A stretch of 64,000 nt of DNA from an uncultured Nitrospinaceae bacterium (GCA_964005815.1 CAXFSR010000060.1:1257-65256); one strand, 5' to 3'; counted from the first letter of the stretch, positions 4,062-35,140 are shown. The notes: generated by a model from the sequence alone, not told the origin. Numbers and translations are program-made.

Positions 4062-4066
4062 ACCAA

Positions 4067-5989: not shown

Positions 5990-6149
5990 TTCCGTTACCT
6001 CTCAAATTAAAATCAAAAAAAAATAACAATTAGTATGATTCTAAACAACTTAAAAAAAGATTCAATAGTTAATGAAACATAATTCTTATTTCTATATCCT
6101 TTTATAATTTGTTATTCATAAGTAGAATACATTTAGGAAAAATAACATT

Positions 6150-6989: not shown

Positions 6990-6998
6990 AAAAAATTT

Positions 6999-9927: not shown

Positions 9928-10039
9928 GCGCAGTCAAAATTAAAGTATTTAAAAATTAACATTGCAAATAATACTTGTTTCAATCAAATTATGAAATTAG
10001 TTTCGTGCAAAATATTTAACCATAAGAAAGAGGAATTTT

Positions 10040-11654: not shown

Positions 11655-13160
11655 TTAAAATAAACTTGAAGCGGAAAGTTTTGTGATATCAATAAAACTA
11701 TCTGGGAAAAGACCAAGATAAAGGGTCATAGACAATAGAATGACCAAAGTAAAGATTAATGAGGAAGCACGGGAGAATTCAAAAGGAATGTCTGGGTCCT
11801 TTGCAGGTTCCATAAACATCACCATAATAACTCGTCCATAATAATACATAGAAATCGCACTTGTAAGTATCCCGATAACAGCCAACCAATAGAATTCATT
11901 TTGTATTGCCGCTGCGAAGAGATATAACTTTCCTACAAAACCTGCAGTTGGAGGTATCCCAGCCAATGAAAGAAGAAAAACCACGAAACACATACCGAAC
12001 CAAGGATGGGACTGACCTAATCCACGCCAATCTTCAATCTGATCTCCTCTTTTGCCTTCTTGGCACATCCATATCAGCATTCCAAAAGCACCTAAATTTG
12101 TAAACAAATATATACCTAAATAAAACAGTACTGAACTTACATTAAAATCACTAAAAAGATATTTCCCATTATGAATTGTGAAACATGAAACAAAACCCAT
12201 CAAAATATAACCGGCATGACTCATACTTGAATACGCAAGCATACGTTTTAGATTCTTCTGTGCAATTGCAGCAATATTACCCCAAACCATTGTCGCAGCA
12301 GTTAAAGCCCAAAAGAGAACAGTCCATCTTGTACTCATAGAAGGCAAGGCTATGACAAAAAGTCGGACTATAACTGCCACAGCTGCTGCCTTCACTGCAA
12401 CAGACATAAATGCAGTTACAGATGTTGGAGCGCCTGTATATGCATCTGGTAGCCACATATGAAAAGGAGCTAGCGCCATTTTAAAAGCAAAACCGCCAAC
12501 TAATAATATAACTGACAAAATTAAAACTGGCTGAGATACTACTGCATTTACATTAGAACTAGAAAGAGCCTTAGCGATAGCAGTAAATGATGTTGAACCG
12601 GTGTAGCCGTAGAGTAATGCGATACCATACAACAAAATTCCAGACGCAAAAGCACCCATCAAAAAATATTTAAATCCTGCTTCTCTACTTAATACATCAT
12701 TTCTCATAAATGCAACTAAAACATAAATACTTATACTCATAGTTTCTATACCAAGATATAGAGTCATTAGATCATTAGCTGAAACTAAAACTAGCATCCC
12801 AAAAACGGAAAACAAAAGCATGGCATAAAATTCACCATAATTAATTTTTTCAACTTTCAGATAATCAATCGACATTAAAACTGTAAGAGCAGCACAAACT
12901 AAAATAGTAGATTTTAAGAAAACACTAAAATTATCAACTATATAAAAATCACTAAAGGTAGTTTTTGGCCCAACACCCCACTGAGATAAAGTAAAATAAA
13001 GGACTATAATTATTCCAATTAAACTAACTAAACCAACTAGAGATTTCTTCTCTAATGAAACAAATAGATCAAAAATAAGAACAAATCCTATAAGAATAGC
13101 AAGACTAATCTCAGGCAAGGCCAGTGAAAATAATATGTCTGGTATAACTACTTGCTGCAT
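11655..13160 (-). CDS. nuoN: NADH-quinone oxidoreductase subunit N (copy 1)
   Basis: 501 aa polytopic antiporter-like subunit with NuoN-type motifs. Last gene of the downstream nuo operon. Confidence 0.9.
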   Translation of the reverse strand: MQQVVIPDILFSLALPEISLAILIGFVLIFDLFVSLEKKSLVGLVSLIGIIIVLYFTLSQWGVGPKTTFSDFYIVDNFSVFLKSTILVCAALTVLMSIDYLKVEKINYGEFYAMLLFSVFGMLVLVSANDLMTLYLGIETMSISIYVLVAFMRNDVLSREAGFKYFLMGAFASGILLYGIALLYGYTGSTSFTAIAKALSSSNVNAVVSQPVLILSVILLVGGFAFKMALAPFHMWLPDAYTGAPTSVTAFMSVAVKAAAVAVIVRLFVIALPSMSTRWTVLFWALTAATMVWGNIAAIAQKNLKRMLAYSSMSHAGYILMGFVSCFTIHNGKYLFSDFNVSSVLFYLGIYLFTNLGAFGMLIWMCQEGKRGDQIEDWRGLGQSHPWFGMCFVVFLLSLAGIPPTAGFVGKLYLFAAAIQNEFYWLAVIGILTSAISMYYYGRVIMVMFMEPAKDPDIPFEFSRASSLIFTLVILLSMTLYLGLFPDSFIDITKLSASSLF

Positions 13161-13189: not shown

Positions 13190-14749
13190 TTAGTTTTTAG
13201 CAGAAACCTTTGAAATACGTTTTTGGATAATTGCAACGTTTTTACTCGTTTGATTCTGATCCACAATTTTCACAACTCTTTTAAGACTAGCCTCCATTTT
13301 ATTTATAAAAGGTTTAGGATAGAGACCAATCCAAAACATTAAAATAACTAAAGGAGCTAGATAAAGAATCTCTCTTAAATTACAATCTGGGATATTTTCA
13401 TTTTTTGGATTTTCCAATTTCCCAAAAAATACTCTTTGAAATAACCAAAGCATATAAGCAGCACCAAGAACAATTCCAATCACAGCAAATGCCGCGTAAA
13501 TATAACTTTTCTTAAATGCACCAATAAGGATTAAAAACTCACCTACAAATCCATTTAACCCAGGTAGCCCTATACTACTTAACATAGTTATTGCAAAAAT
13601 TACGGTAAAAATTGGCATTTGCTTTGAGAGTCCGCCATATTCGGAAATTTCGCGTGTATGTCTTCTTTCATAAACAACTCCGACAAGTAAAAAGAGTGCG
13701 CCGGTACTAATACCATGATTTATCATTTGTAATTGACCACCTATTAGCCCCTGTTCATTTAACGCAAAAACTCCCAGCATAACAAATCCTAGATGACTGA
13801 CTGATGAGTAAGCTACAAGCTTTTTAATGTCAGTTTGAGCCATCGCGACCAATGCTCCATATATAATTCCGATGATAGACAGAAGTACCATAAAAGGCAC
13901 AAAAAGTTGCGTCGCCTCTGGAAGAAGAGGCAATACAAATCGAACAAAACCATATGTACCCATTTTCAATAGAATTCCAGCAAGAATTACACTACCGGCA
14001 GTCGGTGCCTCTACGTGCGCGTCAGGCAACCATGTATGAAAAGGAAACATTGGAACTTTGATAGCAAAACCAATGAAAAAGGCAAGGAAAATCCATACCT
14101 GTAAACTTAGTGGAATCTTTGGTCCCACAAGATACAATTCGGTTAGACTAAAAGTTAAAGAACCGGTTCCTGACTTCATATTAAAGAAATATAAAGCAAG
14201 GATTCCTAGAAGCATTAAAACACTTCCGAAAAGCGTATAAAGAAAGAATTTTATTGCAGCATAGAGTTTTCTGGTTCCACCCCAAATACCAATCAAGAAA
14301 TACATCGGTACTAATGTAACTTCGAAGAAAACGTAAAACAGAAAGATATCAATTGCTAGAAATGTTCCAAGCATACCTGTTCCTAGCAAAAGCAAACAAA
14401 CATAATATTCTTTTTCACGTTCTTTAATAGCAGTAAAAGAACAAACAATAGAAATTAACATTGTTAACGTTGTTAGAAGAATCAAAAGTACACTAATCCC
14501 ATCTACTCCAAGATAATAACTGACACCAATTGATGGTATCCAGCTGACTTTTTCAACAAATTGAAATCCTGCCTCAGAGTCATTGAAGTTCGTCCATAAA
14601 GGAAGAGATATAAGAAAATCGAGAAATGCAACACCAGTAGCAAACATCTTGATTGTTTTCACTTGCTCTTTTTTTATAAAGAGCATAATAATAATTGCTC
14701 CCAGCAAAGGAAGAAAAATTATCAGCGAAAGAAGTGGAAGATTATTCAT
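13190..14749 (-). CDS. nuoM: NADH-quinone oxidoreductase subunit M (copy 1)
   Basis: 519 aa. WLPDAHVEAPTAGSVILAG motif typical of NuoM. Confidence 0.9.
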   Translation of the reverse strand: MNNLPLLSLIIFLPLLGAIIIMLFIKKEQVKTIKMFATGVAFLDFLISLPLWTNFNDSEAGFQFVEKVSWIPSIGVSYYLGVDGISVLLILLTTLTMLISIVCSFTAIKEREKEYYVCLLLLGTGMLGTFLAIDIFLFYVFFEVTLVPMYFLIGIWGGTRKLYAAIKFFLYTLFGSVLMLLGILALYFFNMKSGTGSLTFSLTELYLVGPKIPLSLQVWIFLAFFIGFAIKVPMFPFHTWLPDAHVEAPTAGSVILAGILLKMGTYGFVRFVLPLLPEATQLFVPFMVLLSIIGIIYGALVAMAQTDIKKLVAYSSVSHLGFVMLGVFALNEQGLIGGQLQMINHGISTGALFLLVGVVYERRHTREISEYGGLSKQMPIFTVIFAITMLSSIGLPGLNGFVGEFLILIGAFKKSYIYAAFAVIGIVLGAAYMLWLFQRVFFGKLENPKNENIPDCNLREILYLAPLVILMFWIGLYPKPFINKMEASLKRVVKIVDQNQTSKNVAIIQKRISKVSAKN

Positions 14750-14773: not shown

Positions 14774-16831
14774 CTATTGTAAAAGATAAGCACTTAACAT
14801 TAAGAAAACACCTAAAAGCATTGCAAGCAAATAATTCTGAACCATTCCAGATTGTAAAAATTTAAAAACTTGACTAAAGAAACGAACAAAGTTCGCTACA
14901 CCGTTCACTGCACCATCAACTGTCCTTATATCAAAAAGGGAAGACACTCGACTCGTTAAAACCGTTACAAATGTACTTCCATTTACAGCACCATCAACAA
15001 CTTTAGCATCAAAATTCCACAAAAAACGCATCAATCTATAAATTGGCTCTACAATACATTTTTGATATAACTCGTCTACATAATACTTATTCAGTAAAAT
15101 TTTATATAAACCTGGGAACTTTTGTTGTATTTGATCAGGCATGTTTGATTTTTTCCCATACATACTCCAAGCAATCACAATACCTCCAACAGCTATTATT
15201 ATAGCAAGTATAATTAAGTACATAGCTTCTGGTCCATGATGACCTCCGCTTTCTCCAGAAGCCGCATGAGCGGAAGAAATCAAATTAAAAGAAGAATGAT
15301 GAGTCACATGAGACATTTTAGCGAGAGAAGGAGCTAGAAAATCATGAATCCACCCTTTTTCTGGTGGAAACCCGGGAATAATTCCTCCAAAAATACTCAA
15401 AACTGCAAGTAAAATCAATGGTATTGTCATTGCGGGGGGAGATTCATGAATATGTTCCCTAGCATGAGTGTCTACTCTCATTTCTCCATGAAAAGTCATA
15501 AAAATCAGCCTAAACATATAAAAAGCAGTCATTAATGCTGCTATAGAACCAACTATCCATACAAAAGTATGTCCAGAGAAAAAAGCATTAGCCAAAATTT
15601 CATCTTTACTCCAAAATCCTGCAAAAGGCGGAACGCCTGCTATTGCTATCGCACCGATTAGAAAAGTCCAATATGTTATTGGCATCTTAGATTTAAGACC
15701 ACCCATATATCTCATGTCTTGCTGTTGCTCTTCGGGAGCATGATGTAAAGCATGAATTACACTTCCACTTCCAAGAAACAAAAGACCTTTAAAAAATGCA
15801 TGAGTCATAAGATGGAAAACACCTGCAGTAAATGCCCCAACCCCAAGCGCCATAAACATAAAACCTAATTGACTAACAGTACTATAAGCAAGCACACGTT
15901 TAATATCATTTTGCACGAGACCTATAGATGCTGCAAAAATTGCTGTAAGTGCTCCTACAACAGCAATAACTTCTAAAGCCAAAGCTGCATCAACATATAT
16001 AGGACTGGTTCTCGCAACCATATAAACGCCAGCCGTTACCATTGTAGCCGCATGAATTAGAGCACTAACGGGAGTAGGTCCTTCCATAGCATCAGGCAGC
16101 CAAACATAGAGAGGGATTTGAGCACTTTTTCCCATCGCACCAATAAAAAGCAGAAGTCCAATAATAGAAGCATAAGTAGTTTCAACACCAAGAACATTGA
16201 TATTTACGGCAAATTTCGATGTTGATTGCGACACTTCTTGGTAAGTGAGAGTATCTGCTAACATCCATATCAAAAACATTCCTAGTAAAAATCCAGCGTC
16301 TCCAATTCTGTTTACAATAAAGGCTTTTTTCCCTGCATCAGAAGCAGATTTTTTTTCATACCAAAAACCAATAAGCAAATAACTACATAAACCAACACCT
16401 TCCCATCCAACAAACATTACCAAATAGTTATCGCCAAGTACGAGGAGAAACATAGAAAGCATGAATAAATTGAGATATGTGAAAAATCTAGAGAATCCGG
16501 GATCCCCATGCATATATCCAATTGAATAAAGATGAACCAAAAATCCAACTCCAGAAACAACTAAAAGCATAATTGTACTTAATGGATCTATAAGAAAACT
16601 TAGCGAAACACTAAAACTTCCTGCGTGAATCCATTCCCAGAGATGAACGGTATGTTTTCCACCAGCACCAAAAATCATTTCATTCGCAATGAAAATTACA
16701 ACCAACAGAGACAATCCTGCCATTAAAGTTGCTATATAACCGGATTTCTCCCCTAATCGTTTTCCAAAAATTCCATTAATTAGAACACCTACAACAGGGA
16801 AAAAAGGAATTAACCATGCATTTAAAATCAT
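14774..16831 (-). CDS. nuoL: NADH-quinone oxidoreductase subunit L (copy 1)
   Basis: 685 aa. WLPDAMEGPTPVSALIHAATMVTAG motif and the long C-terminal horizontal helix region. Confidence 0.9.
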   Translation of the reverse strand: MILNAWLIPFFPVVGVLINGIFGKRLGEKSGYIATLMAGLSLLVVIFIANEMIFGAGGKHTVHLWEWIHAGSFSVSLSFLIDPLSTIMLLVVSGVGFLVHLYSIGYMHGDPGFSRFFTYLNLFMLSMFLLVLGDNYLVMFVGWEGVGLCSYLLIGFWYEKKSASDAGKKAFIVNRIGDAGFLLGMFLIWMLADTLTYQEVSQSTSKFAVNINVLGVETTYASIIGLLLFIGAMGKSAQIPLYVWLPDAMEGPTPVSALIHAATMVTAGVYMVARTSPIYVDAALALEVIAVVGALTAIFAASIGLVQNDIKRVLAYSTVSQLGFMFMALGVGAFTAGVFHLMTHAFFKGLLFLGSGSVIHALHHAPEEQQQDMRYMGGLKSKMPITYWTFLIGAIAIAGVPPFAGFWSKDEILANAFFSGHTFVWIVGSIAALMTAFYMFRLIFMTFHGEMRVDTHAREHIHESPPAMTIPLILLAVLSIFGGIIPGFPPEKGWIHDFLAPSLAKMSHVTHHSSFNLISSAHAASGESGGHHGPEAMYLIILAIIIAVGGIVIAWSMYGKKSNMPDQIQQKFPGLYKILLNKYYVDELYQKCIVEPIYRLMRFLWNFDAKVVDGAVNGSTFVTVLTSRVSSLFDIRTVDGAVNGVANFVRFFSQVFKFLQSGMVQNYLLAMLLGVFLMLSAYLLQ

Positions 16832-16841: not shown

Positions 16842-17147
16842 CTACCATTTTAAAAGATTTACTTCATCAACATTCATAACAGTTTTATCACGATTCAACG
16901 AAATCAAAATCGCCAATCCAACAGCAGCTTCACAGGCAGCAACGGCAATAACAAAAATCGCAAAAACTTGACCGGATAGATCCGCCCACTGTCTAGAAAA
17001 ACCAATTAAAGTAACATTTACCGCATTTAACATAAGTTCTATAGATAAGAGAATAATAATAGCGTTTCTTCTCATAAGAACACCTGCTGCACCAATAAGA
17101 AAAAGTACAGCTCCTAGAGTCAAAAAATGAGAAATAGGTATCATCAA
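16842..17147 (-). CDS. nuoK: NADH-quinone oxidoreductase subunit K (copy 1)
   Basis: 101 aa, 3 TM helices. Ends in NLLKW-like sequence typical of NuoK. Confidence 0.9.
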   Translation of the reverse strand: MMIPISHFLTLGAVLFLIGAAGVLMRRNAIIILLSIELMLNAVNVTLIGFSRQWADLSGQVFAIFVIAVAACEAAVGLAILISLNRDKTVMNVDEVNLLKW

Positions 17148-17153: not shown

Positions 17154-17663
17154 CTATGAATCTATTCTTTTCTTAGCAAGCACAATTGCACCAATCATGG
17201 CGGCTAACAAAAGAATAGAAACTACTTCGAACGGAAAAACAAATTTCGTATACAAAACGCTTCCCAATGCTTCTACATTTCCAGGGGTTGCTCCTAACTT
17301 CCAAGGCCATACTTTCATTGCGGGGAAAACTCCCTTACCAAGAACAGACCAAATTTCGAAACCCAAAATTAACACAATTAGAATCGCAAAAAATCGTTGT
17401 CTGTGCCATTGACGAATTCGTACTGCAACCTGAACATTCATTAACATAATCGAGAATAGGTACAGAACCATAATACCACCAGAATAAATAAGAACTTGAA
17501 CAGCCGCAAGGAATTCAGCTCCAGCTAAGACAAAAAGTCCTGCCAAGAAGAAGAATGACAAAACTAATAAAAGAGCTGCATGAATTACATTAGACCTTGT
17601 AATCATGAACAAAGATGTAATCACTATACCGGCAGAAAAAAGATAGAAAAATGGCAGTTCCAA
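17154..17663 (-). CDS. nuoJ: NADH-quinone oxidoreductase subunit J (copy 1)
   Basis: 169 aa NuoJ-like membrane subunit. Confidence 0.85.
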   Translation of the reverse strand: MELPFFYLFSAGIVITSLFMITRSNVIHAALLLVLSFFFLAGLFVLAGAEFLAAVQVLIYSGGIMVLYLFSIMLMNVQVAVRIRQWHRQRFFAILIVLILGFEIWSVLGKGVFPAMKVWPWKLGATPGNVEALGSVLYTKFVFPFEVVSILLLAAMIGAIVLAKKRIDS

Positions 17664-17679
17664 ATGTAGCTCCTAAAAC

Positions 17680-18651
17680 TTATAAGAAAAGATACTTAAT
17701 CAAACCAGTTAGAAAAATATTAATGAGTACAAGAGGAAACATAAATTTCCAACCAACACGCATCAATTGATCATATCGATATCTAGGCAATGTAGCTCTA
17801 AGCCAAATAAAAACAAAAATCATAGCGGCTAGCTTTAGCACAAACCATACAAAACCTGGTAAAGGAATTCCAGGAATTCCCATCCAACCACCAAAAAACA
17901 ACGTAATTCCAACGGTTGAAACAACCATAATATTTGCATACTCAGCTAGAAAGAAAAATGCGAACTTCATTCCACTGTATTCTGTATGAAAACCAGAAAC
18001 GAGTTCCGTCTCAGCTTCAGGCAAATCAAAAGGGACACGATTAGTTTCCGCTAAAGCAGCAATGAAGAATACTATAAAAGCCAACGGTTGCGAGAATACA
18101 AACCAACCTTCGGACTGTGCTTCAACAATTTTTTGCATATTTAGTGAACCCGCAAGCATCAAAGGACCGATGAGAGCAAAACCGAGAAAAATTTCGTAAC
18201 TCAACATTTGCGCAGCACTTCTCAATGCACCTAGTAGACTATACTTACTGTTTGATGCCCAACCAGCCATAACAACTCCAAAAACACCTAGAGAACTTAT
18301 AGCTAGAATCAAAAATAATCCAATATTTACTTGGGTAATATAGAAATTTTCACTAAAAGGTAAAACTGAATATACTACAAACGCGGGGACTAAAACCATG
18401 ATAGGAGCAAGGACAAAAACAACTTTGTCTGATTTTGCAGGAATTATATCTTCTTTCAAGAAAAGCTTAAGTCCATCGGCAATAGGCTGTAAAAGACCGT
18501 GCCAGCCTACTCGCATTGGACCCAATCGCATTTGTATGTGAGCAATAATTTTTCTCTCCAGATAGGTCAAATAAGCAACCACTAGAGAAACAACTAAAAG
18601 TACTACTGCAATTTTAATAAACGCTATTAATGCCTCTGTTGCAATATCCAA
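17680..18651 (-). CDS. nuoH: NADH-quinone oxidoreductase subunit H (copy 1)
   Basis: 323 aa. [12 protein letters not shown] and [15 protein letters not shown] motifs. NuoJ follows directly, with no nuoI between them. Confidence 0.9.
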
Positions 18652-18672
18652 TGAAATAAACTCCCAAACAAA

Positions 18673-19815
18673 TTATCTATCACATTCCCCAAGTACGATA
18701 TCTATGCTTCCAATAACGGCAACAACATCTGCAAGTAGACCTCCAACACACAATTTTTTTAGAGCAGCTAAATTTATAAATGACGGGGGTCTAATACGCA
18801 CACGATATGGTGTTTCTGTACCATCGCTAACTATATAGAATCCGAATTCTCCTTTAGGGTTTTCAATACTATGATATATTTCACCCTCTGGAGGCTTAAT
18901 TGTTCTTGGTGTTTTACAGCTCACAGGTCCATCAGGTAATTGCTCTAAACACTGCTGTATGATTTTCACACTTTGCCTTAATTCTTCAATCCTAACGATA
19001 TACCTGTCATAAATATCTCCATTTTCGCCAGTAGGAACTACAAAATCTAAGTATGGATAGGCCGCATATGGTTTAGCCCTTCTCAAATCATAATTTACTC
19101 CACTTGCTCTCAAGAGAGGACCAGACAAACCAAAATCAACTGCATCTTCACCTGAAATAACTCCCACTCCACGAGTACGTTGAAGCCAAATACGATTATT
19201 AGTCAAAAGTGTTTCATAATCTTGAATTCGACTGGGGAAAATATCGATAAACTCTTGTGCTAATGTCAAAAACTTTGCTGGAACATCTTGCTCCAATCCG
19301 CCTAAACGGAATGCATTCACAGTTAAACGACCACCAAACGCTGTTTCAAATAAATCAAGTACCATCTCCCTTTCTCTAAAGCACCATAGAAAAACTGTCA
19401 TTGCTCCAATATCAAGAGCATGAGTAGCTAACCATAACAAATGACTAGCAATACGAGAAAATTCACCAACCATAGAACGTATATAGTTGGCTCGCATAGG
19501 AATTTCCCAATCGAAAAATTTTTCAACTGCAGTTACCCATGCCAAATTATTAGAAGGAGCAGCTATATAATCCAAGCGGTCGGTATAAGGTATAAACATG
19601 GAATAGGTTATATTTTCACCTATTTTTTCGGTACCTCTATGCAGGTATCCAATATCACAATCAAGATCTGTCACTGTTTCACCATCTAGATGAAGAATCA
19701 CACGAAGTACACCATGTGTACTAGGATGCTGGGGTCCCATATTTACTACAAGTTCCTCAGCTCCAGTAACAGTCTTTGTTTGAATTTCTGAATTTGTTTC
19801 TTCTATTTCATACAA
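18673..19815 (-). CDS. nuoD: NADH-quinone oxidoreductase subunit D (copy 1)
   Basis: 380 aa. MGPQHPSTHGVLR motif at the N-terminus. Confidence 0.9.
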   Translation of the reverse strand: MYEIEETNSEIQTKTVTGAEELVVNMGPQHPSTHGVLRVILHLDGETVTDLDCDIGYLHRGTEKIGENITYSMFIPYTDRLDYIAAPSNNLAWVTAVEKFFDWEIPMRANYIRSMVGEFSRIASHLLWLATHALDIGAMTVFLWCFREREMVLDLFETAFGGRLTVNAFRLGGLEQDVPAKFLTLAQEFIDIFPSRIQDYETLLTNNRIWLQRTRGVGVISGEDAVDFGLSGPLLRASGVNYDLRRAKPYAAYPYLDFVVPTGENGDIYDRYIVRIEELRQSVKIIQQCLEQLPDGPVSCKTPRTIKPPEGEIYHSIENPKGEFGFYIVSDGTETPYRVRIRPPSFINLAALKKLCVGGLLADVVAVIGSIDIVLGECDR

Positions 19816-19834
19816 ATTTCAAATCTCCTAATCA

Positions 19835-20428
19835 TTACTCTCCTATTTCCTTTCGTTGAGGCTTTTCATATACTCTCTCGCCTTTTCCTTCTATAGGGTA
19901 GCTTTTAAGCATTGGATGGCTCCCCCAATCATCAGGCAATAAAATTCTTCTCAAGTCAGGATGACCAGAAAAATCAATTCCAAAAAGATCAAAAACTTCC
20001 CGTTCCATCCAATTGGCACTAGACCAAAGATTGGATAATGTAGGAATGGATTGCTCTTCTTGTAATTTCACTTTTAAACGTACACGTCGATTTCTTTCAA
20101 TGCTATATAGTTGGTATATTAAATGAAGGGGTAGATCGTCATCTGGATAATGCGTAGCTGTCAAATCAACAAGCATAGTGAACTTAAAGACTTCATCATC
20201 CCTAAGTAAAAGCGCAACTTCTTCTATGGAATCCGGTTTTATAGTAATACTAAGCTCATCCTCAAAATCACTAAATGCTTCAGCATCAAATGTAGACCCT
20301 GAAAATTTAGCCTCTAGAAAATCAAGGATATCCTTACCAACGTCTTCTTTCGAATCTTCCTCTGGGTTTTTTTCTGAGGTCTCTTCCTCTACCTCGGAAT
20401 TCTCACCTTGAACTGACTCGTCTGCCAT
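19835..20428 (-). CDS. nuoC: NADH-quinone oxidoreductase subunit C (copy 1)
   Basis: 197 aa. NuoC core (NLWSSANWMEREVFDLFGIDFSGHPDLRRILLPDDW) preceded by an acidic N-terminal extension of about 60 aa. Confidence 0.85.
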   Translation of the reverse strand: MADESVQGENSEVEEETSEKNPEEDSKEDVGKDILDFLEAKFSGSTFDAEAFSDFEDELSITIKPDSIEEVALLLRDDEVFKFTMLVDLTATHYPDDDLPLHLIYQLYSIERNRRVRLKVKLQEEQSIPTLSNLWSSANWMEREVFDLFGIDFSGHPDLRRILLPDDWGSHPMLKSYPIEGKGERVYEKPQRKEIGE

Positions 20429-20457
20429 CTCATTCCTTAAAAGTTAATTTCTGAATC

Positions 20458-20955
20458 TTATTTGCGAATAAATTTCTCTTGTTCAATTTTTTTCTGTAAC
20501 TGCATTACTCCCCACATAAGAGATTCCGGTCTGGGAGGACATCCAGGAATGTAAACATCAACGGGAATAATCTCATCTACCCCTTGCATTACTGCATAAT
20601 TTGGATAAGGTCCACCACAAGTTGCGCAATTTCCCATAGCTATAACCCATCTTGGTTCAGGCATTTGATCATAAACTTTTCTAATTGCACTTCCCATTTT
20701 ATGAGTGACTGTTCCAGCAACTATAATTACATCTGATTGTCTTGGGGTAGCACGAAAAATTACTCCAAATCTATCAAAATCATACCTTGCCGCACCTGAA
20801 GCCATCATTTCAATCGCACAACAAGCAAGACCAAATGTCATCGGCCATAAAGCACTTTTCCTAGCCCAAGCAACAAGACTATCTACCTTGGAAGTAATAA
20901 AATTGTCGTTAAATTTTCCTTCTACTACGCCCATTCCAGAGCTCCTTTTTTCCAA
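20458..20955 (-). CDS. nuoB: NADH-quinone oxidoreductase subunit B (copy 1)
   Basis: 165 aa. Cluster-N2 cysteines present ([20 protein letters not shown]). Confidence 0.9.
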
Positions 20956-21335
20956 GCATAAAAGTATCCTACTAATAAAACTAAAATGAATAACATCATT
21001 TCGACAAAACCAAATAAACCTAAAGCATCATACTTAACTGCCCAAGGGAAAAGAAAAAGAGCTTCTACATCAAATAATAAAAACAAAATCCCTAATAGAT
21101 AGAAGCGTACAGAGAACCTTTCATTCGCCTCCATTAATGGAGGAGAACCACATTCATATGCTGATAATTTCTCTGGATCTGGATTATTGGGTCTAATTAA
21201 TAGAGCAATTAATAATGTTATGCCTGCAAACGCAAAAGCGAACATTACAAAAATAAAAATAGGCAAATAACCATTAATGAGTTGATAATCTCTAAAAAAC
21301 ACACTTAGAAATTCTGGCACAACAAAATCTTCCAA
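20925..21335 (-). CDS. nuoA: NADH-quinone oxidoreductase subunit A (copy 1)
   Basis: 136 aa. YECG motif, 3 TM helices. Overlaps the nuoB start. Confidence 0.85.
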
Positions 21336-21427
21336 AAAAATAAAAAAATCGTTTGTAAAAAAGTTCAGAATTAAAATCTACAAAAATTTTTATACCATGC
21401 TATTGATTCTAAACCAAGTCCAAGCTA

Positions 21428-22912
21428 TCAATTCAAGGAAATATTTGAGCTCAAGGCAAAATCCAAAAAGAAAGATGGAAAGACGCCTAAACTCAATGTT
21501 CCAATTACACATATAACTAATGCAACTACAGCATAAGATAATCTAGACCCCCATACAAATATGAACTGCTCTTTTTTTACATCTTCTACAGGGTCATTCA
21601 TATACATTACAACAATTACTCTTAAATAATAAAATACCGAAACTACGCTATTTAAAACAGCAATAATAGCGAGCCAAACAAAGTCTGACTTTATAGCAGC
21701 GCTAAAAATATAAAATTTTGCAACAAATCCACCTGTTGGAGGAATTCCCGCCAATGCAATCATAAAGATTGCCATGGATAATGCTAATCCTGGTCGAGTT
21801 AAACCTAACCCAGAGAATTCTTCTATAAGTATTCTTTCTTTTCCATCTTCCTTTTTCGCAAGCATTACGACAGCAAATGCGCCTATATTCATAAATGTGT
21901 AAACAAATACATAGAAGAGAAAACTAGCAGAGGATAAGGTCCCAGCTTGTTTAATTGTGACTAATGCAATGAGTAAATAACCAGCATGGGCAATACTGGA
22001 ATAAGCAAGCATTCTTTTAATATTTGTCTGCCATATAGCTACAAGATTTCCTAAAGTCATAGTTAATACTGCAATTATCCATATTGTTATCTCAATTTTA
22101 TTGGCAGAAAAACCAGAGGAGGCAATAAAAACACGGAACAGCGCTGCAAATGCGGCTACTTTTGGACCTACAGACATAAAAGCAGTAGCAACAGTAGGAG
22201 AGCCTTGATATACATCCGGAGTCCACATATAAAATGGGAAAGCTCCTATTTTAAATCCAAAACCAACAATAATAAGACTGAGCCCCAAAAAGAACACTAA
22301 CTTTTGGGAAGAAACTTCATATAATTTGATAATTTCAAAAAGATCTGTAGACCCTGTTGATCCATAAATAAGCGCTATACCAAAAAGTAAAAATCCCGAA
22401 GCAAAAGAACCTAACAGAAAGTACTTCAAAGAAGCTTCATTTCCAATAGAACTAGAACGGAAAAAACCAGCTAGGACATAGAGGGAAAGTGAAAAAATCT
22501 CTAGAGCAATAAAAATCATTACAAGATTTCTTGTCGATACCATAAGCATCATTCCTAGTGTTGCAAAAAGTATCAGCCCTAAAAAATCCCCATATGAGTT
22601 TTCTTCAAATTTTCTCTCCATCGAAGAAATTAAAACAACTAAAAAACTTGAAAAAAGAATTATAAGAAAAAGAGTTCTTGTAAAACCATCAAACAAATAC
22701 ATTCCGCCAAAAGAAATTTTGGTGGTTTCCGGACTTGAAAGCAAACATGAGACAAATGTGGTCAACAAAACTATAATAGACAACCAAAACGTGATTTTTC
22801 GATTTTTATCAGAGGTAAAAATATCGAAAAGTAGAACCATGACAGCGCCAAAAGTTAGAATTGGTATAGGTAGAAAGCTTTTCCAAAAAATTACAGGAAA
22901 AATAAATTCCAT
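21428..22912 (-). CDS. nuoN: NADH-quinone oxidoreductase subunit N (copy 2)
   Basis: 494 aa. Last gene of the upstream 14-gene nuo operon. Only 92 nt separate it from nuoA of copy 1. Confidence 0.9.
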   Translation of the reverse strand: MEFIFPVIFWKSFLPIPILTFGAVMVLLFDIFTSDKNRKITFWLSIIVLLTTFVSCLLSSPETTKISFGGMYLFDGFTRTLFLIILFSSFLVVLISSMERKFEENSYGDFLGLILFATLGMMLMVSTRNLVMIFIALEIFSLSLYVLAGFFRSSSIGNEASLKYFLLGSFASGFLLFGIALIYGSTGSTDLFEIIKLYEVSSQKLVFFLGLSLIIVGFGFKIGAFPFYMWTPDVYQGSPTVATAFMSVGPKVAAFAALFRVFIASSGFSANKIEITIWIIAVLTMTLGNLVAIWQTNIKRMLAYSSIAHAGYLLIALVTIKQAGTLSSASFLFYVFVYTFMNIGAFAVVMLAKKEDGKERILIEEFSGLGLTRPGLALSMAIFMIALAGIPPTGGFVAKFYIFSAAIKSDFVWLAIIAVLNSVVSVFYYLRVIVVMYMNDPVEDVKKEQFIFVWGSRLSYAVVALVICVIGTLSLGVFPSFFLDFALSSNISLN

Positions 22913-24462
22913 TACTGACCTCCTCTAGTAGTAATTGAAGATGAAACTAGTCGAGGTTTAATATTTTTTGTCTCTTTTGCAACAAGTTTGCGCCCTTTAA
23001 TTTTAAGAAGCAAAGATTTTGTAGAAGGTTCGATTATCTTAAGTATTGGCTTTGGATAAATACCTAACAAAAAAACTAAGAAAATCATCGGCACCAACAC
23101 AAACCATTCGCGAAGATTTAGGTCAGTTAAAATCTTATTAGCTTCTATTCTTATTTTTCCAAATATCACCTTCTGCACCATGGGCAACATGTAGACAGCG
23201 GAAAGAACAACACCAATAGTTGCTATTATCGTGGGGATAAAGTGTGATTGGAAAGAGCCAGACAAAATGGCAAATTCTCCTACAAAACCGTTTAATCCAG
23301 GAAGTCCAATACTACTGAAAACAGTAATCACAAAAAAAACAGAAAAAGCAGGCATCACTTTTGCGATCCCACCAAAATCATCTATCAAACGTGTATGTCT
23401 TCTTCTATAGAGCATGCCAACCATCAAGAAAAGTAGTCCGCTACAAATACCATGGTTGACCATCTGCAAAACACTTCCACCAAGAGCTAAGAGATTAAAT
23501 GAAAAAAGCCCGAACATAACAAATCCTAAATGACTTATAGAGGAATAGGCTACAAGTTTTTTTGCATCCCTTTGAATCATAGCCATCAATCCACCATAAA
23601 TAATGCCAACCAACGAAAGAAAAACAAAAAGAGGTGAAAACACAATAGCAGCTTCGGGAAAAAGTGGAATTGCTAGTCTTATGAAACCGTAAGTACCCAT
23701 TTTCAAAAGAACACCAGCAAGAATTACACTCCCTGCTGTTGGCGCCTCTACATGTGCATCAGGCAACCAGGTATGAAAAGGGAACATTGGCACCTTGATT
23801 GCAAAAGCTATTGCAAACGCAACAAAAAGCCATGTCTGGAGTAAAGGGTCAACAGGAGAATTTAAGAAAACTAAAATATTAAAAGTCCCAACACCAGTTG
23901 CAAAATATAGCCATAAAATTGCAATAAGCATCAAAACACTTCCGGCCATTGTATATAGGAAAAATTTCATTGCAGAGTAAATTCTTTTCTTCCCACCCCA
24001 AATTCCAATAATGAAATACATTGGAATTAGCATAGCTTCCCAGAACACATAAAAAAGAAAAAAATCTAAAGAAACAAAAACACCTAACATCGCGGTTTCA
24101 AGAAGAAGCATAGAGAAATAATACAAACGAATGCGTTTCTTGATATCATCCCAAGAAAACAACAAGACTATTGGAGTTAAAAAAGTCGTAAGTAGAATTA
24201 ACGGGAGACTAATTCCATCCAACCCAACTCTATAAGAAACCCCCATAGAATCTATCCATTTAAAATTCTCTACAAATTGCATTTCTGGAGATGATTGAAA
24301 ATTTACAAAAATTACCAATGAAAAAAGAAAAGAAACTAGACTAGAAATTATCGCAATAAGAAAAATTTTTTTACATTGCTTTTCGTTTTTATCCCCAAAA
24401 AACAAAATAAAAAAAGCACCAATTAAGGGAGAAAAAACCATCCAGCTAATAACAGGAAACAA
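22912..24462 (-). CDS. nuoM: NADH-quinone oxidoreductase subunit M (copy 2)
   Basis: 516 aa. WLPDAHVEAPTAGSVILAG motif. Confidence 0.9.
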   Translation of the reverse strand: MFPVISWMVFSPLIGAFFILFFGDKNEKQCKKIFLIAIISSLVSFLFSLVIFVNFQSSPEMQFVENFKWIDSMGVSYRVGLDGISLPLILLTTFLTPIVLLFSWDDIKKRIRLYYFSMLLLETAMLGVFVSLDFFLFYVFWEAMLIPMYFIIGIWGGKKRIYSAMKFFLYTMAGSVLMLIAILWLYFATGVGTFNILVFLNSPVDPLLQTWLFVAFAIAFAIKVPMFPFHTWLPDAHVEAPTAGSVILAGVLLKMGTYGFIRLAIPLFPEAAIVFSPLFVFLSLVGIIYGGLMAMIQRDAKKLVAYSSISHLGFVMFGLFSFNLLALGGSVLQMVNHGICSGLLFLMVGMLYRRRHTRLIDDFGGIAKVMPAFSVFFVITVFSSIGLPGLNGFVGEFAILSGSFQSHFIPTIIATIGVVLSAVYMLPMVQKVIFGKIRIEANKILTDLNLREWFVLVPMIFLVFLLGIYPKPILKIIEPSTKSLLLKIKGRKLVAKETKNIKPRLVSSSITTRGGQ

Positions 24463-24475
24463 GACAAAACCCTTT

Positions 24476-26404
24476 TTAAAATCTATTTGAAAAATTAAAA
24501 ACCATCAATAAAATAATACACACTAAGCCAAACAAAATAGATACTGCATATGTTTTAACGTATCCATCTTGTAAAAAACGCAGCGTTAATCCTAGAGACT
24601 TAACCAATCGACCAGTACCATTCACTGTTGCATCAATTACGTTTTGCTCAAAAAGCTTGAAAAACAAACTTGCAATAGTTCTTAATGGACGTACCAGAAT
24701 GAAATCATAAATTTCATCAATATAATATTTATTTTCAAGAAGAGAATAAATACTTACATTGAGTGTTGATGTACTAGGAAGAATTTGTCGTTTTTTGCAA
24801 CAGGTTTGATAAGCTAGGAAAATACCTAATAAAGCAACACCAAGAGATAAAAACATTAAGACAAGTTCTAAAGTTAAATTATGATGTAGTTCCACCGAAC
24901 CTGATGGACTCAATGCTGAGGAAAGAAATTCAGCAAAAACATTTCCCCCTGATATAATTGGGATACCTACCCATCCTCCCACAATAGAGAAAAAAGCAAG
25001 AACAAATAATGGGAAAATCATAATCGGTGGCGATTCGTGTACATGTATTTTATTTTCGTTGAAATTTTTATCTCCATAAAAAACCTTAAATACCAGTCTA
25101 AAGGTATAGTAAGAAGTCATTAAAGCACCTAATATCCCCGCAAACCAAAAAAGATTAGAGAAAGAACCACTTGTAAAAGCGGAAAACAAAATTGCATCCT
25201 TACTAAAAAATCCTGCTAAAGGAAAAACTCCTGAAATTGCCAGAGAACCAATCAAGAAAACAAAACTAGTTTTGGGGATATCAGATTTTATTCCCCCCAT
25301 TTTTTCAATATCTTGTTCCCCATCCATTGCATGAATTACACTTCCCGCACCAAGAAAAAGCAAAGCCTTAAAAAAAGCATGAGTCATAAGATGAAACATT
25401 GCTGTTGCATAAGCTCCAAGACCGCAAGCTAAAAACATATAGCCTAGCTGACTTAAAGTACTGTATGCTAAAATTTTTTTAATATCTTTCTGAACCAGTG
25501 CAATAGAAGCCGCAAATAATAAAGTGAAAGTTCCTATAATCGCTATGATCATAAGAGTCGATGGCGCAAGGCTAAACAGAACATCGTTTCGAACAAGCAA
25601 ATAAATCCCTGCAGTTACCATAGTTGCCGCGTGTATGAGAGCACTTACAGGCGTAGGACCCTCCATGGCATCCGGAAGCCATACATGAAGTGGAAACTGT
25701 GCACTTTTTCCAGCTGCTCCCAAAAATAAAAAGAGACATAATAAATTTACATTAAGGCTATCTTTGACGAATAGTTCGGATGCACTTTTAGAAATATCTG
25801 TAAAATCAAATGTTCCAAAGACAGTTAGAATATAAAATAAGGCAATAAGAAAACAGAAATCTCCAACTCTATTTACTATGAATGCTTTTTTCCCAGCCTC
25901 TGTAGCAGAAGGTTTTTCATACCAAAACCCGATAAGTAAATAACTACACAAACCTACTGCTTCCCAACCAACAAACATCAATAAAAAATTATCAGCCAAC
26001 ACTAGTAATAACATAGAAAAAGAAAAAAGATTCAAATAAATGAAATAACGAACAATACCCAAATCTTCACGCATGTATGCGACAGAATAAATATGAACCA
26101 TGAATCCGACACCAGTAATAATTAAAGTCATAATAGAAGATATCGGATCAATCACAAATCCAATTTTAATTATCAAATTCCCAATAGGGATCCAATTAAA
26201 AAGAAATATAGAAACGATTCTATCTTGCGGACTTTGGGATAAAAAACTAAAGAATAGAAATAGAGAAACTAGAAACGATAACAATATTGCTGTGGAAGCT
26301 ATCCAACCAGATAATGACTCTTTTTTCCCTTTCCCCAACAACAGAAGATTTGCGAACAAACCCAAAAGCGGGAAAAAAAGTATCAAGAGAATTAATTTGC
26401 TCAT
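24476..26404 (-). CDS. nuoL: NADH-quinone oxidoreductase subunit L (copy 2)
   Basis: 642 aa. WLPDAMEGPTPVSALIHAATMVTAG motif. Confidence 0.9.
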   Translation of the reverse strand: MSKLILLILFFPLLGLFANLLLLGKGKKESLSGWIASTAILLSFLVSLFLFFSFLSQSPQDRIVSIFLFNWIPIGNLIIKIGFVIDPISSIMTLIITGVGFMVHIYSVAYMREDLGIVRYFIYLNLFSFSMLLLVLADNFLLMFVGWEAVGLCSYLLIGFWYEKPSATEAGKKAFIVNRVGDFCFLIALFYILTVFGTFDFTDISKSASELFVKDSLNVNLLCLFLFLGAAGKSAQFPLHVWLPDAMEGPTPVSALIHAATMVTAGIYLLVRNDVLFSLAPSTLMIIAIIGTFTLLFAASIALVQKDIKKILAYSTLSQLGYMFLACGLGAYATAMFHLMTHAFFKALLFLGAGSVIHAMDGEQDIEKMGGIKSDIPKTSFVFLIGSLAISGVFPLAGFFSKDAILFSAFTSGSFSNLFWFAGILGALMTSYYTFRLVFKVFYGDKNFNENKIHVHESPPIMIFPLFVLAFFSIVGGWVGIPIISGGNVFAEFLSSALSPSGSVELHHNLTLELVLMFLSLGVALLGIFLAYQTCCKKRQILPSTSTLNVSIYSLLENKYYIDEIYDFILVRPLRTIASLFFKLFEQNVIDATVNGTGRLVKSLGLTLRFLQDGYVKTYAVSILFGLVCIILLMVFNFSNRF

Positions 26405-26405
26405 A

Positions 26406-26708
26406 TTAAAATTTCAACAAATTGACTTCGTCAAGGTCAGTAGATTCTCGATTCCTGTATATCATTACAACAATCGCCAAACCTATCGCCGCTTCTGCAG
26501 CAGCTACAGCCATAACAAAAAAAACAATTAGTTGTCCATCCATAGAATTTAAAAAATATCCATAACTAACAAAGGCAAGATTTGCACCACTCATCATAAG
26601 TTCAATACATAAAATAACAACTATTACACTCCGTCTTACAATTACGCCAATAACACCCAACGTAAAAAGAATTGAACTAAGAAAAAGATAATTTTCTAAA
26701 GGTACCAT
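26406..26708 (-). CDS. nuoK: NADH-quinone oxidoreductase subunit K (copy 2)
   Basis: 100 aa NuoK. Confidence 0.9.
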   Translation of the reverse strand: MVPLENYLFLSSILFTLGVIGVIVRRSVIVVILCIELMMSGANLAFVSYGYFLNSMDGQLIVFFVMAVAAAEAAIGLAIVVMIYRNRESTDLDEVNLLKF

Positions 26709-26725
26709 ACGTCTTCATCCCAAAA

Positions 26726-27244
26726 TTAACGACTTTTTTTTCTTCCTAAAACAACTGCTCCAATGATGCCGACAAAAAGAAGGACTCCCATTGTTTGAAA
26801 TGGCAAAAGATATTTCGATAGCAAAAACTGTCCTATTAACTGTGTGTTTCCAACTTCATTAATAAATTGCGGAGTGAAAACTCCCTTGATTTGAGGAGAA
26901 ATACTCATATCTTTCAAAACGATTATTAAGACCAAAAATACAAATAAACCAAAAACAATCCCCAGTAGTTTCTGGAAAGGAATTTTTAAATCCTTTTTTT
27001 CCTCTTTGTCTAAATTTATAAGCATAATGACGAATAAGAAAAGCATCATTATTGCACTTGCATAAACAATAATTTGAACTATCGCAACAAATTGGGCGTT
27101 TAAAGATAAGAATAATCCAGCAAGACCAAGGAAAGTTACTATCAAACTAAAAACACAATACATGGGATTAGGCAAAGCAACAACTGAAACTGCGCCGACT
27201 GTGGTTACTATTGCCAAGAAATAAAAAACTAAAGTTGATGCCAT
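26726..27244 (-). CDS. nuoJ: NADH-quinone oxidoreductase subunit J (copy 2)
   Basis: 172 aa NuoJ. Confidence 0.85.
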   Translation of the reverse strand: MASTLVFYFLAIVTTVGAVSVVALPNPMYCVFSLIVTFLGLAGLFLSLNAQFVAIVQIIVYASAIMMLFLFVIMLINLDKEEKKDLKIPFQKLLGIVFGLFVFLVLIIVLKDMSISPQIKGVFTPQFINEVGNTQLIGQFLLSKYLLPFQTMGVLLFVGIIGAVVLGRKKSR

Positions 27245-27256
27245 AAATCATAAACC

Positions 27257-27736
27257 TTATAAATAGGTAAGAAGTTTTTCTTCAGGATAGCGGTTTTTTA
27301 ATTCAGGATAATCTTCGTTCCGTTTTACTAAAAAATCTTCTTTTTCATATAAAAATTTACTTCTGTCATCCGCACAAAATTCGTATTCATTGCTAAGAAC
27401 AATTGCACCAACCGGACATGCTTCTTCACAATATCCACAAAAAATACATCTCAGTTCATTGATCTCATAAACAGAAGCATACCGCTCTCCTTTAGAAACA
27501 GGGGAACTAGACTCATTCTCTTCAGACTCAACATAAATACAATCTACTGGACAAGCTGCAGAACAAAGTTTACATCCTACACAACGTTCAAGACCGTCTT
27601 CCCATCGAAGTAATTTGTGTAAACCTCTATATCCTATTGGCATACTTTCTTTTTGCTCTGGATATTGAACAGTCTCACGGCTTTTCCAGGAATGTTTCAG
27701 AGTAAGCCAAAGACCTCTAAAAATAGCAGTAAACAT
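27257..27736 (-). CDS. nuoI: NADH-quinone oxidoreductase subunit I (2x[4Fe-4S] ferredoxin subunit)
   Basis: 159 aa. Two CxxCxxCxxxCP motifs (CVGCKLCSAACP, CIFCGYCEEACP). This is the only nuoI in the 24-gene array. Confidence 0.9.
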   Translation of the reverse strand: MFTAIFRGLWLTLKHSWKSRETVQYPEQKESMPIGYRGLHKLLRWEDGLERCVGCKLCSAACPVDCIYVESEENESSSPVSKGERYASVYEINELRCIFCGYCEEACPVGAIVLSNEYEFCADDRSKFLYEKEDFLVKRNEDYPELKNRYPEEKLLTYL

Positions 27737-27760
27737 TGAAATCCCTCTATTTTCTGAAAT

Positions 27761-28744: not shown

Positions 28745-28756
28745 TTTTTTAAATCC

Positions 28757-31300: not shown

Positions 31301-31325
31301 ACTGAATCTCCAATACTAATTTTAA

Positions 31326-32627: not shown

Positions 32628-32646
32628 AATTTAATCCATAAAAAAA

Positions 32647-33261: not shown

Positions 33262-33280
33262 GCGAAATTACTCCTTAAAT

Positions 33281-34504: not shown

Positions 34505-34530
34505 AATTATGTAATCTCTTTAATTTAAAC

Positions 34531-35091: not shown

Positions 35092-35140
35092 CTTTTACCC
35101 TTTGTATCTTTCACCTAAAAAATGGAAATCAACTGAGGAT

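Follow-up and report, generated by a model that had tools for sequence, protein, structure and literature searches.

A 10-gene nuoABCDHJKLMN cluster (hereafter copy 1) in an uncultured Nitrospinaceae bacterium lacks nuoI as well as nuoEFG, and belongs to a clade in which this layout is conserved. The cluster lies on the minus strand (21335-11655) of the window, the 64,000-nucleotide stretch of DNA analyzed here (GCA_964005815.1 CAXFSR010000060.1:1257-65256), directly behind a complete nuoA-N operon. Our preferred interpretation, held at somewhat better than even confidence, is that copy 1 encodes a functional second complex-I-like enzyme with NuoI supplied in trans, the upstream operon being the simplest source.

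The ten minus-strand ORFs are identified by NCBIfam models as NuoA, B, C, D, H, J, K, L, M and N (E = 1e-34 to 3e-232; Table 1), and all are intact, with coupled ribosome-binding sites. Their identity to the upstream paralogues is 31-55% (blastp, with the upstream operon as the reference set). A Shine-Dalgarno-like GGAG lies just ahead of a TTG start in both the D-H and H-J spacers, while neither a terminator-like hairpin nor a sigma-70-like match is found in the spacer between the two operons.

Table 1. Features of the copy-1 operon and the preceding nuo operon (positions counted from the first letter of the window).
Feature	Position	Strand	Basis
nuoA copy 1	20925..21335	-	NCBIfam NuoA models, E = 5e-36
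nuoB copy 1	20458..20955	-	NCBIfam NuoB, E = 1e-75
nuoC copy 1	19835..20428	-	TIGR01961, E = 2e-40
nuoD copy 1, short form	18673..19815	-	TIGR01962, E = 7e-153
nuoD-nuoH spacer, 21 nt, with ribosome-binding site	18652..18672	-	sequence
nuoH copy 1	17680..18651	-	NCBIfam NuoH, E = 8e-117
nuoH-nuoJ spacer, 16 nt, AGGAG then TTG start; nuoI position in sister operons	17664..17679	-	
nuoJ copy 1	17154..17663	-	NCBIfam
nuoK copy 1	16842..17147	-	NCBIfam
nuoL copy 1	14774..16831	-	NCBIfam
nuoM copy 1	13190..14749	-	NCBIfam
nuoN copy 1, operon end; convergent HAD-hydrolase gene next	11655..13160	-	NCBIfam
Inter-operon spacer, 92 nt, AT-rich, upstream nuoN to copy-1 nuoA	21336..21427	-	
Upstream complete 14-gene nuoA-N operon	21428..35964	-	ORF list
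Upstream nuoI, proposed trans-acting NuoI donor for the copy-1 complex	27257..27736	-	CxxCxxCxxxC motifs

The absence of nuoI from the copy-1 operon is confirmed. With the minimum length of a nuoI gene taken as about 400 nt, the D-H and H-J spacers leave no room for it, in agreement with the initial annotation, which had nuoD abutting nuoH. The short H-J gap that it described is also real, though one nucleotide shorter than the 17 nt given (nuoJ starts 17 nt past the last nuoH base). A six-frame scan of the 64 kb finds two CxxCxxCxxxC motifs, both in the upstream nuoI, and the only nuoE, F and G genes in the window are those of the upstream operon. The earlier claim that copy 1 lacks both nuoI and nuoEFG is correct. 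No ferredoxin domain is fused into any of the ten copy-1 proteins, which have too few cysteines (zero in NuoC, H and J), and no small ORF is found hidden within the operon.

An assembly deletion had been raised as a possible cause of the short H-J gap. It is excluded because three separate assemblies from nearly identical organisms (JGI 3300009703, ENA ERZ27251152 and Logan SRR6056609; ∼98% NuoH identity) repeat both the D-H-J order and the 16-nt gap, and because the same order recurs in distant relatives. In all, the nuoI-less operon is present in the window and in loci L092-L094 (98% NuoH identity), L001/2 (86%), L089 (72%), L003/4 (71%) and L005 (60%), spanning GC contents from 34% to high, and the identical layout occurs in at least eight independent assemblies. 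In four of the five nuoI-less lineages the operon lies directly behind a nuoI-carrying cluster. In the window this cluster is the full nuoA-N operon; in the relatives its visible part is H-I-J-K-L-M-N. In L005 the operon stands alone, and neither nuoI nor a ferredoxin motif is found within 10 kb of it.

Trees assign the copy-1 operon to the NuoEFG-less "11-subunit" lineage, with the whole clade grouping with operons of this type, and the closest outgroup NuoD, at 62% identity, belongs to an ABCDHIJKLMN operon of Acidobacteriota. The closest relatives of copy 1 (63-73% NuoH identity) keep their own small nuoI, encoding 147-153 aa, between nuoH and nuoJ (L086, L087, L088, L090 and L091). Two of these sister operons, L087 and L091, immediately follow a further nuo cluster (visible only as J-N and L-N, respectively), so the tandem arrangement is probably older than the nuoI loss; L088 is a stand-alone EFG-less unit. 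The nuoI-less operons are monophyletic with 92% bootstrap support in a tree built on A, B, C, D, H and J, implying that nuoI was probably lost once, at most twice. An earlier tree with fewer taxa (A, D, H, J, K, L and M) placed the nuoI-containing L086 inside the nuoI-less group with 76-82% support, which is why a second loss is allowed for. The loss is old and is conserved in a Nitrospinota-related clade. Copy 1 is secondarily reduced, in a tandem context, from an ancestor with the 11 genes nuoABCDHIJKLMN, and does not represent a primitive module without NuoI. The initial annotation was correct on the gene content, and lacked this evolutionary context, in which the sisters reveal a nuoI-containing ancestor.

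The 11-subunit complex I of Desulfitobacterium hafniense, Bacillus and Acidobacteriota (PMC3144371, PMC11238625) likewise has no nuoEFG and has a short NuoD without the MEALIHHFK segment, and shares with copy 1 its gene order, N2 and quinone-site motifs and three antiporter-like subunits. The copy-1 operon differs in lacking nuoI and in its position directly behind a full 14-gene operon. No common electron donor has been identified for the 11-subunit enzymes (PMC3144371, PMC11238625). A related case in Nitrospinota was noted by Kop et al. 2024 (PMC10839748, supplementary text), who describe the MAG GEM_3300024259_23 of class UBA9942 as having 'all genes twice except nuoEFG'; their supplementary tables contain no per-gene nuo counts. 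This non-Nitrospinia Nitrospinota MAG is probably the source of locus L087, which is from the same JGI metagenome. L087 contains an orthologous operon, also tandem behind another nuo cluster and without nuoEFG, in which every gene best-matches copy 1 (48-67% identity), but it keeps a 147-aa nuoI between H and J where the window clade has lost it.

The copy-1 operon is under strong purifying selection, with dN/dS of 0.00-0.19 across all ten genes (0.009 for nuoB). Universal columns (conservation of 93% or more among nuoI-containing operons) are all kept in NuoA, NuoB (50), NuoD (73), NuoH (71), NuoM (69), NuoN (44), NuoJ and NuoK. In NuoL, 97 of the 98 are kept, and the remaining one shows an A-to-G change. 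The antiporter-like subunits and the E-channel retain their conserved charged residues, as judged by alignment columns. NuoB has the four N2 cysteine ligands, including the tandem CC, and the motif GCPPRP, upholding the earlier claim that the N2 cysteines are intact. NuoD passes the NuoD equivalog model (509 bits, with a cut-off of 459), has no NiFe-ligand cysteines, ends in the NuoD-type DIVLGECDR, and contains intact quinone-site motifs HPSTHG and DRLDY, the His and Tyr of which we take, by motif matching, to be H38 and Y87 of Thermus thermophilus Nqo4. The enzyme is thus intact and constrained, including its N2 and quinone-site motifs, so N2 would still need an electron relay.

The 25-aa MEALIHHFK segment missing from copy-1 NuoD is present in all 39 NuoD from nuoEFG-containing operons, and missing in 23 of 24 NuoD from nuoEFG-less operons (the exception, L028, has unrelated filler). 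NuoC has an acidic N-terminal extension of about 55 aa, and carries D93H and R100P in place of a widely conserved Asp/Arg pair that is lost in all nuoI-less members. These replacements were considered as a signature of nuoI loss and ruled out, since nuoI-containing L019 (H/Q), L072 (H/H) and Bacillus-type operons (D/H) also depart from the pair. Lineage-specific substitutions in NuoB/C/D/H occupy 7/330 and 3/302 columns in the two nuoI-less subclades, compared with 3/347 in the nuoI-containing sisters; the lack of a burst suggests that the NuoI-contacting surfaces may still face a NuoI-like partner. No adaptive or convergent changes toward the upstream copy are found in copy-1 NuoB, D or H.

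Copy 1 is distinct from other members of the superfamily. The canonical 14-subunit NADH:quinone oxidoreductase has NuoE, F and G in the same unit, and copy 1 has none of them. Cyanobacterial/chloroplast NDH-1 and archaeal Fpo are also NuoEFG-less, with ferredoxin or F420 as partner, and are functional analogues with respect to a non-NADH donor; they differ in retaining NdhI/FpoI and in having lineage-specific accessory subunits, and the NCBIfam NDH-1 and Fpo scores of the copy-1 proteins are far below cut-offs. Nor is copy 1 a group 4 [NiFe] hydrogenase (Ech, Mbh, Hyc/Hyf) or Mbx: in the PDB it matches complex I far better than MBH or FHL, and copy 1 has three antiporter-like subunits (L, M, N) compared with few in group 4 hydrogenases.

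The view that a nuoI-less nuo operon is exceptional does not hold at the operon level. In a contig scan with NuoH alignment, 21 of 80 sampled GTDB species loci, among the matches listed (distant phyla, not close Nitrospinota relatives), have no nuoI in the operon, nuoH being directly followed by J or K. Most are from Acidobacteriota, and 17 of the 21 contain nuoEFG genes, so NuoI must come in trans there. The literature found on such operons is limited to a passing mention in Acidobacteria (bioRxiv 10.1101/197269). The nuoACDEFGHJKLMN and nuoACDHJKLMN operons of Acidobacteriota (bioRxiv 10.1101/197269) resemble copy 1 in that nuoH is directly followed by nuoJ, but nuoA is also directly followed by nuoC and many contain nuoEFG, whereas copy 1 has nuoB. 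Lacking both nuoB and nuoI, these operons must have Fe-S subunits supplied from elsewhere in the genome; they form a separate clade in trees, indicating a loss independent from that of copy 1. In an Eisenbacteria MAG, nuoI occurs as an orphan, with the surrounding 10 kb free of other nuo genes. NuoI encoded in trans therefore has precedent. Since nuoI-less operons are common and an orphan nuoI exists, absence of nuoI from an operon is weak evidence for absence of NuoI from the enzyme.

In the proposed explanation, copy 1 would be a quinone-linked, proton-pumping oxidoreductase with an N2 cluster and a normal quinone pocket, whose ancestral operon, nuoABCDHIJKLMN, encoded a small NuoI of its own. 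The nuoI would have been lost in the ancestor of the Nitrospinota-associated clade, once the operon had come to follow a complete nuoA-N operon directly. The copy-1 enzyme most likely still holds a NuoI subunit provided in trans, and the simplest donor would be nuoI of the upstream operon, which lies some 6 kb away and may be on the same transcript. NuoI would pass electrons between N2 and a cytoplasmic partner other than NADH, probably a carrier of the ferredoxin type. In a chemolithoautotroph, the proton-motive force could drive the enzyme backwards, so that electrons move from quinol to the low-potential carrier. A second complex I is also present in another Nitrospinota member, Nitrospina gracilis, whose NUO-2 has been suggested to power reverse electron transport onto ferredoxin (Lücker et al. 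2013, PMC3578206). NUO-2 differs in its scattered genes (nuoACHIJKLMN, nuoEGD, nuoB2, nuoF2), in retaining nuoI, and in its modified NuoE/F/G with extra Fe-S clusters (PMC3578206).

Sharing of the upstream NuoI was one of the options listed in the initial annotation and is the one favored by the evidence, from which we infer assembly of this protein into the copy-1 complex. The upstream NuoI is of the standard 14-subunit type with no departures from consensus, and in genomes with a nuoI-less operon it has neither adaptive departures from that consensus nor changes toward the sister-type NuoI, hence no positive signature of dual use. Interchangeability of the sister-type and upstream NuoI, which are 31-38% identical, is assumed in this explanation, and the stand-alone L005 operon, with neither nuoI nor a ferredoxin motif within 10 kb, weighs against it.

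Of the alternatives, the best surviving, which we regard as possible though unlikely, is that the copy-1 complex is completed by a relocated sister-type nuoI paralog or another 2x[4Fe-4S] ferredoxin-like protein encoded elsewhere. Such relocation has parallels in the Eisenbacteria orphan nuoI, the Acidobacteriota operons without nuoB and nuoI (both of which must sit elsewhere) and the scattered NUO-2 genes of N. gracilis (PMC3578206), and L005, with no nuoI within 10 kb, is in line with it. Against it, a word-indexed search matched 42 relatives of the sister-type NuoI, none attributable to the megabase contigs that carry nuoI-less operons, with 90% clusters obscuring contig assignment; the 64-kb window contains no other ferredoxin motif; and the tandem position behind a nuoI-bearing operon is conserved in four of five lineages.

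Less probable again is a NuoI-free enzyme, in which N2 is the sole Fe-S cluster and exchanges electrons directly with a soluble low-potential carrier or with a new docking partner on the surface otherwise covered by NuoI. Retention of the operon through deep divergence under strong purifying selection speaks for this, and the stand-alone L005 operon is compatible with it without demonstrating it. The lack of acceleration or remodeling of NuoB/C/D/H argues against it, as does the fact that NuoI is also structural in the Q-module, and to our knowledge no characterized member of the complex I / group 4 hydrogenase superfamily is without a NuoI homolog. The clade-wide loss of the Asp/Arg pair in NuoC, a subunit that contacts NuoI (PMC3144371), is likewise compatible without being conclusive, the pair also being replaced in some nuoI-containing operons.

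Slightly lower still we place a second NADH:quinone oxidoreductase, formed by the copy-1 subunits together with the upstream NuoI, E, F and G and differing in its membrane and quinone modules; as a sub-variant of sharing, its probability overlaps that of the preferred explanation. NuoE, F, G and I, which carry the Fe-S chain of the upstream operon, are precisely the subunits without a second copy, and the operons are tandem and possibly co-transcribed, but copy-1 NuoD lacks the segment found in all 39 EFG-linked NuoD, the sister operon L088 is EFG-less and stand-alone, and the whole clade groups with 11-subunit-type operons. A decaying, non-functional duplicate or assembly artifact, for which the missing gene and nothing more can be cited, is extremely improbable and is refuted by the ten intact ORFs with coupled ribosome-binding sites, the low dN/dS and the independent assemblies.

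The Nitrospinota-associated clade, which dropped its dedicated NuoI while the other subunits stayed under strong selection, is a natural experiment in complex I modularity. If one NuoI does serve two divergent Q-modules, with partners 31-55% identical, the NuoI interface would be generic and isoenzymes could have subunits in common. Should the enzyme instead work without NuoI, it would be the first complex-I-type enzyme without a NuoI homolog, a 10-subunit redox-driven proton pump that redefines the minimal core. A "missing nuoI" in MAGs is usually blamed on incompleteness (e.g. 10.1101/197269), and here it is a genuine heritable state, which is relevant to metabolic reconstruction of Nitrospinota and other MAGs. 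With about one quarter of sampled nuo operons lacking nuoI (among the matches listed), operon-based completeness rules should allow for its absence.

The two nuo operons of the window are arranged head to tail on the minus strand, the complete nuoA-N operon upstream and a ten-gene operon (copy 1) downstream, with a convergent HAD-hydrolase gene beyond the end of copy-1 nuoN. Each of the ten copy-1 proteins was assigned to the expected Nuo subunit by NCBIfam models (E values 1e-34 to 3e-232). The nuoD-nuoH and nuoH-nuoJ spacers of copy 1 measure 21 and 16 nt, and both contain a GGAG-type ribosome-binding site ahead of a TTG start. When the 64 kb were scanned in six frames, no CxxCxxCxxxC motif appeared outside the upstream nuoI, and copy-1 NuoC, NuoH and NuoJ contain no cysteine, so that they hide no cryptic fused ferredoxin domain. 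The short H-J spacer and the confinement of ferredoxin motifs to the upstream nuoI bear out the initial annotation in that copy 1 lacks nuoI, its gap of 17 nt differing by one base through the way of counting. Other genes of the neighbourhood encode a chlorite-dismutase-family protein, SCO1/SenC, a NifU-like protein, SelA and SelB of the selenocysteine machinery, and nitrile-hydratase-like alpha and beta subunits with three flanking amidohydrolases.

Coordinates of the nuo operons and of associated genes in the window and in comparison loci
Feature	Position	Strand	Remarks
Upstream complete 14-gene nuoA-N operon	35964-21428	minus
nuoD of upstream operon	33281-34504
nuoI of upstream operon	27257-27736		sole CxxCxxCxxxC-bearing gene in the window, two motifs
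Inter-operon spacer	21336-21427		92 nt, AT-rich
Copy 1, nuoA-B-C-D-H-J-K-L-M-N	21335-11655	minus	NCBIfam
nuoB of copy 1	20458-20955
nuoC of copy 1	19835-20428
nuoD of copy 1	18673-19815
Other neighbourhood genes of the window	30-4061, 6150-6989, 39718-40772
L087, front nuo cluster	1-7262
L090, GltD-like gene	1120-2556
L003, Thy1 gene	17467-18846
L005, Thy1 gene	17199-18617
L095, orphan nuoI	10001-10477

The same genes and an identical 16-nt H-J gap are present in three independent assemblies of near-identical organisms (JGI 3300009703, ENA ERZ27251152 and Logan SRR6056609; 98% NuoH identity), which disposes of the assembly deletion that the initial annotation had allowed for. Across the ten genes, dN/dS against the ENA contig (Nei-Gojobori) is 0.00-0.19, with values of 0.009 for NuoB, 0.024 for NuoD and 0.038 for NuoH. 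Copy 1 is neither an assembly artefact nor decaying. Its gene order recurs in the public loci L001/L002 (86% NuoH identity), L089 (72%), L003/L004 (71%) and L005 (60%), the last from a high-GC genome. A Thy1 (ThyX-family) gene of unusual length (459-472 aa) comes after nuoN in L003 and L005.

The two copies of the window are 31-55% identical, subunit by subunit, and are old paralogues, copy 1 being no recent duplicate of the upstream operon. Copy-1 NuoD lacks a 25-residue segment (MEALIHHFK..., residues 313-337 of upstream NuoD). Among the sampled public loci (L001-L085), this segment occurs in 39/39 NuoD proteins from nuoEFG-containing operons and is missing from 23 of the 24 encoded in nuoEFG-less operons, the exception having an unrelated Pro/Ala-rich filler at the site. 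Its absence, together with the nearest NuoD outgroups (Acidobacteriota nuoABCDHIJKLMN operons, 59-62% identity), places copy 1 in the NuoEFG-less "11-subunit" lineage of Moparthi and Hägerhäll (PMC3144371). Copy 1 is a variant of a known 11-subunit complex-I-like operon, not a new kind of system. The segment also provides a simple sequence marker to predict N-module association.

Beyond the nuoI-less group, the nearest relatives have a nuoI of 147-153 residues between nuoH and nuoJ. These sister operons are orthologous to copy 1, which is the best match of every gene, and comprise L088 (Nitrospinae RIFCSPLOWO2_12_FULL_45_22; 73% NuoH identity), L091 (67%), L086 (66%), L087 (JGI metagenome 3300024259; 63%) and L090 (62%). 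Their NuoI is only 31-38% identical to upstream NuoI. In a neighbour-joining tree of concatenated NuoA+B+C+D+H+J (1353 columns, 200 bootstraps), the five nuoI-less operons form one clade (92%) within a 93% clade that includes the nuoI-containing sisters. The loss of nuoI in the copy-1 clade is, on this sequence evidence, secondary, and would have occurred once or at most twice, since a previous tree, built from different subunits and fewer taxa, put the nuoI-containing L086 among the nuoI-less operons. In L090, a GltD-like gene (Fer4_20 plus pyridine-nucleotide-disulfide oxidoreductase) lies directly upstream of nuoA, a candidate for the NAD(P)H-linked input module of the EFG-less enzyme family.

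In four of the five nuoI-less lineages, the operon still lies directly behind a nuoI-carrying cluster; only L005 stands alone, and it is the key test case. Two sisters, L087 and L091, also directly follow another nuo cluster, of which only J-N and L-N, respectively, are visible. The tandem layout is therefore found on either side of the nuoI-loss split, and probably preceded the loss. The front cluster of L087 begins at nuoJ (J-K-L-M-N) and is preceded by a GCS2-family gene, not by a nuo gene; the upstream operon of this lineage is itself split.

Alignment columns with 93% or higher conservation in nuoI-containing operons number 15 in NuoA, 50 in NuoB, 73 in NuoD, 71 in NuoH, 12 in NuoJ, 11 in NuoK, 69 in NuoM and 44 in NuoN, and the nuoI-less members all keep every one of these; of 98 such columns in NuoL, one has changed, conservatively, from A to G. 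No nuoI-less member lacks the N2 ligand motifs or the quinone-site motifs of NuoD. The only universal residues lost are an Asp/Arg pair of NuoC (D93 to H and R100 to P in all nuoI-less members), situated in the motif xDY...RFxVVY. NuoC contacts NuoI (PMC3144371). In a larger alignment, similar replacements appear in some nuoI-containing operons, and the substitutions were rejected as a mark of nuoI loss. Across bacteria the two positions co-vary (D/R, D/H, H/Q, H/H, H/P), suggesting an interacting pair. Fixed substitutions specific to one lineage were counted in NuoB/C/D/H: the two nuoI-less subclades have them in 7/330 and 3/302 columns, no more often than the nuoI-containing sister pair (3/347), which argues that the Q-module was not remodelled after the loss. 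NuoB of the window and L001 has a fifth cysteine three residues past the third N2 ligand, absent at that site from L003, L005, L088, L090 and the upstream copy. A fifth cysteine is also present in other members, possibly at a different position.

Operons lacking nuoI also occur elsewhere. A profile search of public genome contigs yielded 80 loci from many phyla among the matches listed (48-58% NuoH identity), annotated by blastp against the window Nuo proteins. In 21 of these 80, the next gene after nuoH is nuoJ or nuoK, 111 nt or less away. Among these matches, the nuoI-less types are chiefly Acidobacteriota nuoACDEFGHJKLMN, with neither nuoB nor nuoI; others are nuoACDHJKL(M)N, Eisenbacteria nuoABCDEFGHJKLMN (L020) and one Calditrichaceae locus. 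Seventeen of the 21 carry nuoEFG. In known complex I architecture, N2 cannot be reached from EFG unless N6a/N6b are present, which requires a NuoI encoded elsewhere in these organisms. Neither NuoB nor NuoI is encoded within 10 kb of the Terriglobia A-C-D-E-F-G-H-J-K-L-M-N operons (L024, L031, L035, L041, L054, L055, L058, L061, L070, L080, L081 and others), suggesting unlinked nuoB and nuoI genes that may serve several complexes; further Acidobacteriota operons read A-C-D-H-J-K-L-M-N. An orphan nuoI in a Candidatus Eisenbacteria MAG (L095) encodes 158 aa, 54% identical to upstream NuoI; no further nuo gene lies within 10 kb of it. Two contigs with complex I operons come from MAGs named Bifidobacterium breve and Rickettsia typhi (L011, with an Acidobacteria-like A-C-D-H-J-K-L operon, and L033), likely mislabelled or contaminated bins. 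The sole literature mention found of such operons is a passing one of "nuoACDHJKLMN operons" in peatland Acidobacteria, where the missing nuoI was ascribed to MAG incompleteness (10.1101/197269); no description of the Nitrospinota-type nuoABCDHJKLMN operon was found.

Support is best for a copy-1 enzyme in which NuoI is still present and supplied in trans, a reading favored by the loss of nuoI in a tandem setting that has since been kept, by the conserved N2, which needs a relay, by the unremodelled Q-module, and by the clear precedent for trans-encoded NuoI. The simplest donor would be the upstream nuoI, ∼6 kb from copy 1; the inter-operon spacer contains no terminator-like hairpin, and both operons could be co-transcribed. 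Upstream NuoI yielded no positive sign of dual use. A sister-type nuoI that has moved elsewhere, or a different ferredoxin-like subunit, could fill the same place but is rather unlikely: a search with sister-type NuoI returned only 42 relatives, and none could be assigned to the long contigs bearing nuoI-less operons, which further favors supply in trans. A truly NuoI-free enzyme is more doubtful still. Correlative evidence argues against a sharing of NuoEFG: copy-1 NuoD is short, and some EFG-less sisters stand alone. By analogy with known 11-subunit enzymes, the redox partner of copy 1 would be a ferredoxin-type carrier, and electron flow may be reverse, as could occur in an autotroph. Such reverse flow has been suggested for enzymes of other Nitrospinota and of Nitrospira (PMC3578206).

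Copy 1 is genuinely nuoI-less, a conserved state not described before for its clade. The likeliest explanation, that the subunit is supplied in trans, is an ordinary one. The copy-1 clade offers a clean natural test of the exchangeability of NuoI and of the minimal complex I core.
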